DNA of 64,000 nucleotides from Candidatus Bathyarchaeota archaeon (GCA_963806535.1 CAWDYC010000004.1:64001-128000); one strand, 5' to 3'; counted from the stretch's first letter, positions 17,123 through 49,248 are shown. Program-made: numbers and translations. The notes: generated by a model not told the origin, from the sequence alone.

Positions 17123-17231
17123 GCCGGGGTAGCCTAGCCTGGCTAGGGCGCCAGACTCATAATCTGGAGTTTGTAAGGGGCAAGCGCCTTACGACCAGAA
17201 GTCACGGGCTCGAATCCCGTTCCCGGCACCA
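17123..17231 (+). tRNA. tRNA-Met(CAT), elongator type, 31-nt intron at position 45/46 (17170-17200), CCA encoded
   Basis: Acceptor GCCGGGG/TCCCGGC, anticodon arm CCAGA-CTCATAA-TCTGG intact; intron removal restores variable loop AGGTC. Confidence 0.9.
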
Positions 17232-24815: not shown

Positions 24816-25904
24816 ATGGCTGAAAACCTAAAATTCAGAAACCCCGAATTAGCGCAGAATATAGCGTCAAAAATCAAAAGCTTGGCGCCGAAGGCTGGAA
24901 AAATCAAGATTTGCCATGTCTGCGGAACGCATGAATGGACGATAACGCATTTTGGTTTGCGTAGTCTTTTGCCAGAAAACGTTGAAGTTATTGCTGGTCC
25001 AGGCTGCCCTGTTTGTATTGTTCCTGCAGCTGAAATTGATGAAGCTGTACAGTTAGCGCAGATGGGCAATGTGGTTACCTGTTTTGGCGATGTGTTGCGT
25101 GTTCCAGGCAGCAAAATGTCGCTTCTAGAGGCTAAAGCGGCAGGCGCTGACGTCCGAATTGTCTATGCGACTTCGGATGCGGTTGAAATGGCTAAACGTG
25201 AACCGAACAAACAGTTTGTGTTTTTCGCGGTTGGTTTTGAAACTACTGCTCCTTCAACAGCGGTTGAAGTGCTTGGGAACCCGCCGAAAAACCTCAGTTT
25301 CTTGGTGTCTCATCGTCTGATTCCTCCTGCCATGGAGCTTCTGCTTGGCGTCGGTGACTTGGAGATTGACGGTTTCATTGCGCCAGGGCATGTGAGCGCG
25401 ATTATTGGCTTGAAGCCTTATGAGTTGTTTCCACGGGTTTATCGGATGCCAACTGTTGTGGCTGGTTTTGAGCCCATTGATGTGTTGATGTCGGTTTACA
25501 TGATTGTTAAGCAGCATGTCGAAGGGTCACCTAAGTTGGAGAATGAGTATCCCCGTGTGGTTAAGCCTGAAGGCAACCTTCGAGCGCTTGAGGTGATGAA
25601 TAAAGCCTTCACTGTTACAGGCGGCAACTGGCGCGGAATCGGCAGACTTCCAGACTCAGCACTGCAACTACGCAAAGAACTTGCAGATTTCGATGCACGA
25701 TTAAAATACAATGTCCACGTAGAACAGGGCAAAGACATCCTGCTTGGCTGCGAATGTCACCTTGTAATCATCGGAAAAATAAAACCCAACCAATGCCCAA
25801 TGTTTCTGAAGGCTTGTACACCCGAGAAACCTGTTGGCGCATGCATGGTCAGCAGTGAAGGCACCTGCAGGGTTTGGGCAAAAAACGTGGCTGTCCAGGC
25901 TTAG
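24816..25904 (+). CDS. hypD: Hydrogenase maturation protein HypD
   Basis: CGTHE, GPGCPVC, GFETT, PGHVS, GACMVSSEGTC. Confidence 0.97.
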   Translation: MAENLKFRNPELAQNIASKIKSLAPKAGKIKICHVCGTHEWTITHFGLRSLLPENVEVIAGPGCPVCIVPAAEIDEAVQLAQMGNVVTCFGDVLRVPGSKMSLLEAKAAGADVRIVYATSDAVEMAKREPNKQFVFFAVGFETTAPSTAVEVLGNPPKNLSFLVSHRLIPPAMELLLGVGDLEIDGFIAPGHVSAIIGLKPYELFPRVYRMPTVVAGFEPIDVLMSVYMIVKQHVEGSPKLENEYPRVVKPEGNLRALEVMNKAFTVTGGNWRGIGRLPDSALQLRKELADFDARLKYNVHVEQGKDILLGCECHLVIIGKIKPNQCPMFLKACTPEKPVGACMVSSEGTCRVWAKNVAVQA

Positions 25905-26974
25905 CAGATTCTTGGCACTGGGTCACCGATCGGGTCTTGCAATTATTCTTTTGCCGCCAACCTCTGTTTGCATGGCTACTCCTTTGAATTCTGATGTTGC
26001 TTCCCCGATTATCTGCGCGTTTTTGCCTTCTTCTGTTTGCTTCAAAAATTCCAATGCCTCCTCAGCTTTTTCGGTGAACAACTCCGATGATGTATTTGCC
26101 TTCATTTCCAACTTCTAAGGGGTCTAAACCAAGCATGTCGCATGCAGCCTGAACGTCTTTTCGAATTGGCACTTTGTCTTCTTGAATTAATATGCCAACT
26201 TTGGATTTTTCAGCCCACTCATTTAAGGCATCAGCTAAACCGCCGCGAGTGGGATCTTTTACAGAAATAACCCCCCCTATCTTCAGCAAATAATCGTTGA
26301 AGCATGCGATTTAATGGTCTAACGTCAGATTTTATTTCGCTGCCAAACTTTAATCCCTGCTGGGCTGAGAGCACGGCTAATCCGTGGTCGCCAATGGTTC
26401 CTGTTAAAATGATTTTGTCTCCTAACGGCAAGGTTTGAGTCCAGCGTCCAGCGAGCAGCATTACTGTTCGGTACTTGCCTTGCCACTGCTAAGATTGCTT
26501 TCTAAGGCTGCTGTTCTTTTGCCGATTCCTGAAACATTCATGACAAGTCCACCTAAACTGCCCTTCTCCACCACCTTCGTGTCGCCAGTAACAATGCCGA
26601 CACCTGCTTCAACGCATGTGTCATGCATGCTGACAAGAATTTTTTCCAAATCACTAATGGGCAAGCCTTCTTCTAAAATAAACCCGCAAGCCAAAGCGTA
26701 AGGCTCTGCTCCCATGGCTGAAATATCGTTTACGGTGCCTGAGATTGATAAGCGTCCGATGTCTCCGCCTGGGAAAAAATATCGGTTTAACCGCGTGGGA
26801 ATCACTTTTAAATACTATATCGCCAATTACTGCGGCGTCATCCATGGCTTCCAATGGAACTTCTGCAATGTTGCCCAAGCCGCCGAAATATTTTACGATG
26901 TAATTTTTGACCAAGTTGTGCATGACTGTGCCGCCAGCGCCATGCAGCATGGTAATTTTTTCGTTTGTTGACAT
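25901..26974 (-). CDS. hypE: Hydrogenase maturation protein HypE (several frameshifts)
   Basis: HGAGG, FFPGGDIG, GDTKVV, DPTRGG, ANEG-like GNEG, C-terminal PRIC. Confidence 0.95.
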
Positions 26975-27049: not shown

Positions 27050-27260
27050 TTTTGCTGGGCACACTGTAACCAACAATTCCCTCAGGGCACCATATTAAAA
27101 AGCAGAAGAAGAAGTGTGCCCCTGCAGGTTTTCTTCTTCTTTCTGAAACTGGGATAGAAGTAGGATGGTGCTATTTCCAGCCTTCCTTCTTCTTCTACCA
27201 GAAAAGAACAACAACAGCTGCCATTAGCAACTGTTGTTATTCTCTATAAATAACAAAGAT
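27050..27260 (-). ncRNA. Structured leader/sRNA candidate, copy A, with micro-ORF MAAVVVLFW (27195-27224)
   Basis: Homologous to 47760-47880; several hairpins built from AGAAGAAG/CTTCTTCT blocks. Confidence 0.55.
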
Positions 27261-46103: not shown

Positions 46104-47112
46104 CTAACGCGCCAAAGCAATCCATAAATGGTCTGAAACTGGTCTTGGCAGCATCTCAGCCGAATCGTCACTATGCATCAAAATGCGTTTGTTTGGGTTC
46201 GGATTGAATTCGCCTATTACGTCAGCGTAAATATGCTCTTGACCTAAAGCATCCAATATTTTGTCTGCAGATTCCGGCTCAGCAGCTATCAGTAGCGCGC
46301 CTGAACTAATCAGTTGCAGCGGGTCAATCTCGTAGTATCGGCAAATTTTGGCGGTTTCAGGTTCAACAGTTATTTTTTCTTGAAAAACTCGGATGCCTAA
46401 GCCCGCAGCGTCTGCCATCTCGTGAATGCCATTTAATATTCCGCCTTCAGTTGGATCATGCATGGCGTGGACTCCGCCTGTTCTGTAAGCGGTTAAGGCA
46501 TCTTTCACTACGCTTATTTGATTAAAGAAATGTTTGGCGCTATCAAGCATTTCAGGGTTAAAGACTTTTGAAAGTTGTTCTTCACGATCAGAAGCCAAAA
46601 TTGCTGTGCCTTCAATTCCAGCGCTCTTCGTTAAGATCAGTTTGTCTCCTGTTTTAGCGCCTGCCGCAGTTACGTATTTGCCTTTTTCTGTTAAGCCCAT
46701 GATGCAGCCGACAACGATGGGATTAGCTAAACCAGGTGTTGATTCGCAGTGTCCACCCACGATGGCTATTCCAAGTTCTTTTGCTGCCATATGCATTTGC
46801 GTGCTTATGGTTTCAACTATTTTGCTGTCCGCGTTTTCTGGCAGAAGGAGGCATGAGAAGAAAAAGGCTGGTTCAACCCCGAAAGTGGCAACGTCGTTAG
46901 CGTTTATGTTGATGGCTTCCCAGCCGATGCGTTCAACTGCCCCCGTGATGGGATCCATTGAAACAATAGCGTTTTTGTTTCCAACATCTAAAACAGCGCC
47001 ATCTACTCCAGCGGCTGGACCTAAAACGACTTCGCCACGTTCGTGCGCCTAAGTTTTTGAATACAACTTCTTTTAGAATATCTATGGGGATTTTTCCAGG
47101 CGGCAGCTTCAT
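46104..47112 (-). CDS. AIR synthase/HypE-related protein (frameshift near 47045)
   Basis: DPITG, NANDVAT, VGGHCE, HDPTEGG, SSGALLI; no C-terminal PRIC. Confidence 0.88.
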
Positions 47113-47759: not shown

Positions 47760-47880
47760 TTGAAACTTTAATGTTTTTGAAAGAACAACAGTTACTGTTG
47801 GCTCCGGGTATTATTCTTCTTTGATAGAAGAAGTAGGAAGGCTGGAATTAGCACCTGTGCCCTACTTCTTCTAAGCTTAG
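47760..47880 (+). ncRNA. Structured leader/sRNA candidate, copy B, with micro-ORF (M)APGIILL (47798-47824)
   Basis: Homologous to reverse complement of 27150-27260; GAAACTTTAAT promoter-like box 31 nt upstream of the TTG. Confidence 0.55.
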
Positions 47881-47967
47881 GTTGAAATGCATCTAAAAAC
47901 CAAACAGCAAAAGAGGAAAATCTAAATGGAAGTTCACGGCAAAATAAACACGACAGAGTGACAAGTC

Positions 47968-48370
47968 ATGACCGAAAGAGAAGACCCAATAAAAATGCAT
48001 AAACAAGGAATTTCCCTAATGGAAAACGGCAAATATGAAGAAGCCAAGAGACATCTTCATCAGAACCGCTGAACTATACTATAAAGGACAAAACTATTTT
48101 GGCGCAGCAGAAATGTACTACAAAGCCGGCGAAGCAGCTGTAGCCCTAAAAGACTGTGCGAAAGGTGCCGAGCTCTTTATGAAATCCGCTGAAGTCGCGT
48201 TTAGCAAAGCCTTTGACAGATACGGCTTAAGCGGACTTGAACAAGCTAGAGACTGCCAAAAAACTTTGGGTAACACGAAAGAAGTAGAGGAACTTAAAAA
48301 GAAAATCAAGGAAATCAACGACAAACAAAAAGAACCCGAAGGCGAATCAACATTCTCAGTATTCTCTTAA
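47968..48370 (+). CDS. TPR/SNAP-like helical repeat protein (frameshift near 48047)
   Basis: Repeated A-E-x-Y/F-x-K-A/S-A helices. Confidence 0.7.
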
Positions 48371-48479
48371 AATCTCTATTTGCCAATAGAGATCGTTTAA
48401 GCTTAGTTTTACCCCAAATTTTCATTATTTTAGTTTTAGAGAAACAGCTTGTTTGATGGTTTTTTGTACAGTTTTTTAT

Positions 48480-49019
48480 AAAAAACCTAGCAGAATACCT
48501 GCCGCGTTAGCGGCAGGATGAATGCGTCTAACCCGCAGTTCTATTAGTTCTACCAAACGATAGGTCTGTCACCATTAGATAAGGAGGTGAGAGACCTGGA
48601 GAAAGCAAGATCATGTGCCTACCAAGCCAACTACCACCTTATCTGGGCCACTAAATACCGGCGCAAGGTACTTTTGGGCTCAGTTGAGGTTAGATTGGAG
48701 GAAGTACTTAAAACGATTGCTACTAATCACGGCTTTCAACTGCTAGCTGCTAAAGTTCATCATGGCGATCATATTCATGTGTTTGTTTCTGCTCGTCCAA
48801 AGCTTTGTATACCTGAGATGGTGCGTGTTTTGAAGTGTAATTCTTCTAAACTGCTGTTTGAGGAGTTTCCTGAAATTAGGTTGCAGCTTTGGGGTGGGCA
48901 TTTGTGGTCTGAGGGTTATGCTGTAAGGACTGCAGGCGTTGTTACTAGTGCGAAAATAGAAGAATATATCAACAAAAATTAGATGTGGATGCTCGCCTCG
49001 GAAGAGGCGAGTACTTCAC
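48480..49019 (+). mobile_element. IS200-group element (IS200/IS605 family, no tnpB)
   Basis: Left hairpin CCTGCCGC-GTTA-GCGGCAGG 48498-48517, right hairpin CTCGCCTC-GGAA-GAGGCGAG 48992-49011 flanking tnpA. Confidence 0.9.
48587..48982 (+). CDS. tnpA: Y1 HUH transposase
   Basis: YHLIWATKYRR, DHIH, LWSEGY, IEEYI. Confidence 0.95.
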   Translation: MRDLEKARSCAYQANYHLIWATKYRRKVLLGSVEVRLEEVLKTIATNHGFQLLAAKVHHGDHIHVFVSARPKLCIPEMVRVLKCNSSKLLFEEFPEIRLQLWGGHLWSEGYAVRTAGVVTSAKIEEYINKN

Positions 49020-49248
49020 TTTTTAAGTTGCTTTTTTGTAACAGATTTTAGTTTCTTTGCAGGTTGAGTCAAAAAAAGATCAAGGCAAATTGTGAGGAAG
49101 CAAAAGCCAACAACAGGATAATTCTGTTTTTGCAGCAAATTTATGGAACTGTTTTTTCTAACCAAAAGGATTGACCGAGTCAGTATTTGAGATTCATAAT
49201 GGATTTATTGCGAGTTTCAACAACAGTGTTTAAATTGGAGCCTTAGCT

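Follow-up and report, generated by a model that had tools for sequence, protein, structure and literature searches.

The repeats closest to those analysed here are the BOX elements of pneumococci and the ERIC elements of enterobacteria, which a review presents as short, non-coding, mostly intergenic and multi-copy, with stable stem-loops and a modular build (PMC10969869). The same review describes the Sulfolobus SM1-SM4 MITEs, non-coding archaeal elements present in tens of copies per genome, as well as Rickettsia palindromic elements, in which a palindromic repeat is read in frame within a protein (PMC10969869). For Bathyarchaeia, none of the titles listed by full-text literature searches concerned such small structured repeats. 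Sulfolobus SM1-SM4 derive from IS elements and share IS ends. In P22, SPP1 and P1, pac sites lie inside small-terminase genes, and pseudo-pac sites occur in host chromosomes.

Here, we analyse two related stretches, copy A and copy B, in the window, by which we mean the whole 64,000-nt stretch of bathyarchaeal DNA. Its genome of origin, G000, comprises 2.95 Mb on 12 contigs. Copies A and B are members of a lineage-restricted, non-coding, dispersed DNA repeat family. The original prediction, made from the sequence of the window, had proposed two options: a cis-regulatory RNA or small RNA that includes a hydrophobic micro-ORF, and a repeat of the non-autonomous kind. The latter option is supported by a multi-copy family with a patchy spread in the genus, by orthologous sites that are filled, decayed or empty, and by flipped hairpins, tandem copies and microsatellite expansion.

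A lineage-restricted family of hairpin repeats

Two exact occurrences of the 20-nt motif GGAAGGCTGGAAWTAGCACC are present in the window, one in each copy and on opposite strands (Table 1), compared with 0.02 expected occurrences; none of 100 shuffles contained two or more matches. Regions of 261 nt around the two copies can be aligned, with a conserved block of ~100 nt, which bears out the shared sequence that had been reported for the two stretches. Two further features described in the original prediction are present in both window copies, namely short V/L/I-rich ORFs that each end right before the AGAAGAAG arm and alternative AGAAG/CTTCT pairings. The apical motif had been called almost invariant, and this holds between copies A and B but not across the family, where position 4 is C or T in most copies; in two family copies an A-rich loop replaces the motif loop.

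The full unit of ~145 nt consists of three tandem hairpin modules, each of which follows TGAAAGAAG or a close variant of it. Copy B is complete and scores 147 bits with the family covariance model, and its fold contains three hairpins (-60.5 kcal/mol, z = -7.1). The model matches copy A at 47781-47895 with 63.4 bits (E = 2.6e-12). This copy diverges from the family alignment immediately past hairpin 2, and its two hairpins give a fold of -28 kcal/mol (z = -1.8), a stability that 6 of 200 shuffles also reach.

Table 1. Positions of the two window copies, their parts, neighbouring features and related loci.
Feature	Position	Strand	Description
Copy A	window 47780-47873	+	two hairpins; truncated family member without hairpin 3
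Copy A hairpin 1	window 47780-47822	+	AACAAC/GTTGTT-type arms, partly degenerate; RNA fold
Copy A micro-ORF	window 47798-47824	+	TTG..TGA, 8 codons and stop, MAPGIILL; judged not a gene
Copy A hairpin 2	window 47825-47873	+	arms AGAAGAAGTAGG / CCTACTTCTTCT; loop holds the motif at 47836-47855
Copy B	window 27103-27245	-	three hairpins; complete member
Copy B hairpin 1	window 27203-27245	-	long stem, near-perfect
Copy B micro-ORF	window 27195-27230	-	11 codons from TTG, 9 from ATG; judged not a gene
Copy B hairpin 2	window 27149-27201	-	holds the motif at 27167-27186
Copy B hairpin 3	window 27103-27145	-	arms AGAAGAAGAA / TTCTTCTTCT, loop with GGGGCACAC; same type as the provirus HTH-gene hairpin
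Module 1 arms			AGAACAACAAC / GTTGTTGTTCT
Module 2 arms			AGAAGAAGnAGGA / TCCTnCTTCTTCT
Module 3 arms			AGAAGAAGAA / TTCTTCTTCT
AIR-synthase-family gene by copy A	window 46104-46958	-	second gene leftwards
AIR-synthase-family gene by copy B	window 26461-26805	-	adjoins copy B, beside HypD at 24816-25904
Third AIR-synthase-family gene near a repeat copy	G000:C7:186276-187172
IS200-like element	window 48475-49024	+	550 bp; tnpA 48587-48982, Pfam Y1_Tnp, E 2.3e-35; outside the repeat family
Degraded provirus fragment	G000:C3:304390-306409 (L170:2718-4737)		frameshifted HTH gene, then large terminase split in ORFs of 120 and 358 aa
HTH gene family example	L322:1510-1950
HTH gene family example	L321:1513-1971
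HTH gene family example	L345:4004-4534
Promoter/operator-like module, six copies	G000:C3:153430-153514; C7:336145; C7:254722; C5:37062; C4:572034; C11:89318

Across its own genome, the motif was found with at most three mismatches at 14 places, 13 of them real and one spurious, against none for a reversed control. An nhmmer profile detected 17 copies at E <= 3.6e-19 and two fragments. Tallied by eye from the alignment, 11 of the 17 copies have three hairpins, copy A and three others have hairpins 1 and 2, and two have hairpin 1 replaced or missing.

A covariance-model search, which had been suggested along with the original prediction, did reveal further homologues. The model was built from 13 copies and, at E <= 1e-3, matches 54 of 120 species-representative genomes of the genus, leaving 66 without a match. 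Ten high-copy genomes have at least 13-22 matches each, counted among at most 26 candidates scored per genome. Of 151 genomes sampled from the order, 5 were matched. Outside the genus, we found only three weak single matches, all in one sister genus, and none in 115 genomes from eleven other families.

The elements do not correspond to a family in Rfam. At the gathering threshold, Rfam recognised only two tRNAs in the whole window; at E <= 10, copy A had two weak matches and copy B 21, the best reaching 22.4 bits against a threshold of 60. Searches of phage and plasmid collections (blastn, E <= 1e-3) and of viral contigs (exact pattern) gave no match to the repeat. Separately, a tRNA match in the window (17123-17228, +; Rfam 53.8 bits) spans 106 nt, longer than a plain tRNA, and is therefore probably intron-bearing; tRNA introns are common in archaea.

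All 17 own-genome copies are intergenic, with flanking genes that are divergent in six cases, tandem in seven and convergent in four. The element points towards the next gene in eight cases and against it in nine. According to Pfam, the neighbours include ribosomal proteins, HypD/HypE, catalase, IF-2, QueC, NucS, Cdc6 and topoisomerase VI, along with many other unrelated housekeeping kinds. The proximity of AIR-synthase-family genes to both window copies, another element of the original prediction, is confirmed by Pfam. Such a gene lies within two genes of 3 of the 17 copies, compared with nine domain matches in the genome as a whole, which suggests an excess above chance. The AIR-synthase ORF beside copy B is only 114 aa long and comprises the N-terminal domain alone, so hypE may be split there.

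A promoter/operator-like module of 55-75 nt, with a TATATAC repeat and a GTACAnTTGTAC palindrome, occurs in six copies of 88-93% identity, and a stretch similar to it was found inside a ~200-nt repeat of G079. An ORF of 111 aa (window 48035-48370, +), situated between copy A and the IS200-like element, has no Pfam match at E <= 1e-5. In G105, G112, G013, G096 and G049 this ORF is conserved at the corresponding site.

Orthologous sites range from filled through decayed to empty, or carry another repeat. At one site between two conserved genes (C4:153k), the three-hairpin repeat is present in G000 and G013. This same site (orthologous to G000:C4:153.3k) carries a different repeat of ~200 nt in G079 and G004 (L091:2385-2632; L092) and other DNA in G096; it is empty, with a spacer of ~50-75 nt, in G095, G130, G003, G117, G098 and G124. 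The ~200-nt element is itself dispersed (15 BLAST hits in G079, 7 in G004, none in G000) and unrelated to the three-hairpin family. Since two unrelated repeats fill the site, it represents an insertion hot spot. Decay is graded at the copy A site, where G105 retains hairpins 1 and 2, G112 only the 3′ arm of hairpin 2, and G013 almost nothing. At the copy B site, weak copies remain in G049 (38.9 bits) and G013 (36.2 bits), with 14 bits in G105 and none in G112.

Full-length paralogues within G000 are 83-95% identical, compared with 53-84% for orthologous copies, whose flanks are mostly 70-97% identical (14 pairs). Paralogues are thus more alike than orthologues, which argues for within-genome homogenisation or re-insertion and not for purifying selection on fixed loci. 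The hairpins are also rearranged individually: reading the sequences of 85 copies by eye, we found seven with hairpin 1 and two with hairpin 3 in reverse-complemented form, and another flipped hairpin 3 lies beside L124. Tandem and nested copies occur. In several copies (L093, L094, L096, L097 and L104; G105 and G112), the 3′ arm of hairpin 3 has grown into a (CTT)n tract of up to ~9 units, unaccompanied by growth of the 5′ arm, and this one-sided expansion points to slippage at the repeat.

The provirus HTH gene and its embedded hairpin

One own-genome fragment is a lone hairpin 3 inside the ORF P0001 (G000:C3:304390-304914), which precedes a split large-terminase gene. Relatives of P0001 are found in 55 of 120 genus genomes, and three of these (G117, G010 and G023) have 11-15 matches, often isolated genes or fragments with no terminase gene nearby. 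The gene lies directly before the large terminase in G000, G097, G014 (L344, L345) and G117 (L335, L337), and in G010 (L342) its reading frame runs into the terminase N-terminus; at six other loci it has no adjacent terminase gene. Tail genes are located upstream of it. The HTH gene occupies the usual small-terminase position in tailed proviruses.

Intact HTH proteins are 146-176 aa long, or up to 218 aa with a C-terminal tail, and start with M-x-K-G-K-P-W. They are predicted to carry a three-helix HTH of the Myb/GcrA kind at the N-terminus, then a disordered linker and finally a long helix at the C-terminus (mean pLDDT 74, pTM 0.38). A profile search of the PDB returned only Myb/GcrA-type HTH domains (E 4.9e-5). 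P0001 itself has no family in Pfam or PHROGs; its relatives match no known small terminase in Pfam, and in PHROGs only phrog_323, a 'transcriptional regulator, D5-like' (E down to 1e-12). A Foldseek search with the model against PDB and BFVD returned nothing at E <= 0.001, including no small-terminase fold.

In 17 of the 19 HTH genes that could be anchored, the DNA that encodes the linker forms a hairpin in an unchanged position. The stems differ between homologues yet stay paired, with GAA-run/TTC-run (E..S), CAA/TTG (Q..C), GTA/TAC (V..T) and GAT/ATC (D..S) types. When 48-nt windows are ranked by stability, the linker comes first in 10 of the 19 genes and first or second in 12. Since the hairpin is kept in one position across many proviruses while stem sequence and encoded residues change together, we consider it a likely functional nucleic-acid signal beside the terminase, and a candidate packaging signal of uncultured archaeal viruses.

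The repeat hairpins are homologous to these gene hairpins. Hairpin 3 is up to 98% identical to the E/S-type gene hairpin over 53 nt, loop included, and hairpin 1 is 77-82% identical to the Q/C-type over 43-48 nt; hairpin 2 resembles the V/T-type hairpin of G067 by eye, a similarity for which BLAST gave no link. The homology extends beyond the stems. In G127, G101 and G009, ~45-60 nt on each side of the repeats match coding sequence flanking the linker, and alignments of repeat flanks with gene flanks reach 82.5% (63 nt) and 73.8% (103 nt). Furthermore, the TGAAAGAAG before each module corresponds to the '..L-K-E' codons just before the hairpin in the HTH gene. Taken with the hairpin and flank matches, this leads us to read the repeat as an HTH-gene fragment in which a single hairpin has become three.

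The family probably consists of virus-derived hairpin repeats that are dispersed at the DNA level and are largely neutral or selfish. The three-hairpin repeats would have originated from a segment of the provirus HTH gene; we infer the direction from gene to repeat because the hairpin sits at one fixed position in the gene homologues, including those in genomes without repeats. The repeats would then have spread and been homogenised at the DNA level, through illegitimate insertion together with gene conversion or re-insertion among copies, with the hairpin arms acting as recombination-prone inverted repeats, and would subsequently decay, for the most part as neutral or selfish DNA. If neighbouring genes were affected at all, for instance by RNA hairpins forming in an untranslated region, this would be incidental. 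A resident HTH gene is not needed for the repeats to persist, since G127 has at least 20 repeats with gene-like flanks yet no P0001 match. By hand count, 39 of the 54 model-positive genomes are also P0001-positive, against ~25 expected; we do not treat this overlap as evidence, because a single model match may simply have picked up the hairpin of the gene, and because related genomes are non-independent.

The position of the HTH gene raises a further, more speculative possibility, namely that its hairpin is a virus pac site bound by the HTH protein and that the chromosomal arrays serve as pseudo-pac sites in transduction or as small-terminase decoys in defence. Many pac sites lie within terS genes, and the small-terminase position of the gene, the predicted architecture of its product described above (Myb/GcrA-like HTH, linker, helix) and the conservation of the hairpin at the nucleotide level while the encoded residues change would all suit this role. 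The three modules also represent three stem types that occur as alternatives among the gene homologues (hairpin 3 as E/S, hairpin 1 as Q/C and, by eye only, hairpin 2 as approximately V/T). However, the HTH protein matches no known small terminase in sequence or fold (Pfam, PHROGs, Foldseek), the orthologous copies decay fast and hairpins occur flipped, which fits poorly with strong selection for function, and in G000 the provirus HTH gene is frameshifted and its terminase gene split. On balance we regard this possibility as unlikely. It is equally doubtful that the arrays, carried by the host, mimic packaging signals used by its resident tailed viruses, with each hairpin copying another allelic type and recruiting or soaking up the viral DNA-recognition protein. 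If they were, host DNA might be packaged from ~20 chromosomal sites, amounting to built-in generalised transduction, or the arrays might serve as decoys that weaken several virus lineages simultaneously.

RNA-level and transposon readings

The folding of the repeats could alternatively reflect a multi-copy family of independently transcribed sRNAs of ~145 nt, with three hairpins that each carry an RGCAC loop motif, acting in trans, for example as a protein sponge. The predicted folds are strong, both for copy B and for a canonical copy (-51.7 kcal/mol, z = -4.9). In an alignment of 87 rows that was fitted to the covariance model and whose copies are related, stem pairing is kept in 92.5% of cells, against 45-77% when the partners are slid, and double, compensatory changes are found in 24 of 36 stem pairs. 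On the + strand, G-U exceeds A-C by 275 to 61, and by 82 to 43 outside five fixed G-U pairs. The G-U excess and the kept pairing hint at selection on a + strand transcript; alternatively, they could be inherited from the sense strand of the gene. One copy and its G013 orthologue sit right behind the conserved promoter-like module. Contigs from four sequencing runs, two of them labelled metatranscriptomic, covered conserved ribosomal-protein genes of relatives, and in those two runs the bin with copy B stayed uncovered, which speaks neither for nor against transcription.

Several observations count against an sRNA family. The reverse strand of the canonical copy folds about equally well (-50.5 kcal/mol). 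The original prediction had also noted a promoter-like box upstream of copies A and B, a feature that does not hold beyond these two: with hairpin 1 as the anchor, 57 copies show no AT-rich box at a fixed distance, and no conserved box is seen more than ~5 nt upstream, the information content being near zero upstream of position -5. Orthologues are less alike than their own flanks and than paralogues, truncated, flipped and tandem copies are common, and the family is missing from more than half of the genus genomes. We consider independently transcribed sRNAs improbable.

Mobilisation in trans offers another explanation, in which the repeats would be classical MITEs or non-autonomous elements derived from IS200/IS605 and moved by a genome-encoded transposase. 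The repeats do have MITE-like traits, being small, non-coding, multi-copy and intergenic and showing presence or absence at orthologous sites, and an IS200-like element lies downstream of copy A, starting 547 nt beyond the nhmmer match, which ends at window 47928. The ends of this 550-bp element are defined by three genome copies of 99.5-100% identity, which suggests recent activity, and both carry GC-rich hairpins. However, these end hairpins are unrelated to the repeat-family arms. An IS-end match, which the original prediction had named along with an Rfam match as speaking against it, was not found, and neither was an Rfam family.

The distribution of transposases and the repeat junctions also speak against such an origin. 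Y1_Tnp occurs in 39 of 120 genus genomes, but six of the ten high-copy genomes (G049, G009, G101, G105, G094 and G123) yielded no Y1 transposase gene, and such genes are abundant in genomes free of the repeat (8 in G095, 7 in G016 and 10 in G002). The genomes represent one per species, so that repeat junctions are compared across divergence that blurs them; among 62 copies, the longest direct repeats between the flanks had the same length distribution as those in mismatched flank pairs, giving no target-site duplication above the control. The repeat ends resemble each other only via the purine-rich hairpin arms, with terminal inverted repeats judged by eye. We found no parent IS with repeat-family ends and no mobilising enzyme or mechanism for the three-hairpin repeats. 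A MITE or IS200/IS605-derived origin is very unlikely. An IS200/Y1 transposase or a REP/RAYT system was likewise rejected as the mobiliser: the end hairpins differ, Y1 does not track the repeat, and there are few lone hairpins outside the composite unit.

The micro-ORF shows no coding signature. Among 85 non-redundant copies from six genomes, a 10-codon ORF is intact in 24, a start codon is absent from the aligned position in 32, and the remaining ORFs range from 2 to >45 codons. The 24 intact ORFs differ at 19, 16 and 17 sites over codon positions 1, 2 and 3, with no third-position bias; of their codon differences, 33 are non-synonymous and 15 synonymous. The hydrophobic 'peptide' is therefore a reading of the GTT/CTT-rich 3′ arm of hairpin 1. 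Although both window copies combine V/L/I-rich ORFs with alternative pairings and the 10-codon ORF recurs, this lack of a coding signature, the variable length and frequent loss of the start, the even split of orientations and the functionally unrelated neighbours make a cis-regulatory leader with a hydrophobic, attenuator-like peptide, or a type I toxin with a structured mRNA, barely credible, and the riboregulator part of the original prediction is not supported. As specific candidates, a leader-peptide attenuator was discarded for want of both a conserved ORF (24/85) and a fixed co-directional upstream position (8/17), and a type I toxin-antitoxin system because the window ORFs, of 8-11 codons, are not of membrane-spanning length and elsewhere vary widely. 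A peptide of 9-11 residues is insufficient to span a membrane. For annotation, three-hairpin elements should not be called riboregulators or small-protein genes.

Comparison with known repeats and packaging sites

Compared with BOX and ERIC as the review presents them, the three-hairpin family is similar in being short, non-coding, multi-copy and mostly intergenic, in its stem-loops and variable module number, in clustering or nesting with other repeats, and in a copy number that varies between related taxa. It differs in being archaeal, in having no sequence relation to them, in modules that appear traceable to a provirus-gene hairpin, and in the lack of target duplications among the 62 copies. 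With Sulfolobus SM1-SM4, as outlined in the same review, it shares an archaeal host, tens of copies per genome and a non-coding nature; in contrast, no parent IS was found for the three-hairpin family, and the nearby IS200-like element is unrelated.

The Rickettsia palindromic elements are comparable in that a hairpin is read in frame, here in the linker of the HTH gene (E..S, Q..C, V..T, D..S). Whereas those elements insert in many genes, the hairpin described here is confined to a single position within one gene family, to which it appears ancestral, and the dispersed copies are intergenic. As with the pac sites of P22, SPP1 and P1, structured or repeat-rich DNA lies in the gene just upstream of the large terminase and has look-alikes in the host chromosome; in contrast, the HTH gene has no detectable similarity to known small terminases. 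To our knowledge, pseudo-pac sites have not been described as multi-copy arrays of three modules.

Bacteria are well known to carry small structured interspersed repeats. If the repeats in Bathyarchaeia do go back to a specific virus-gene hairpin, they provide a rare view of how such families arise.
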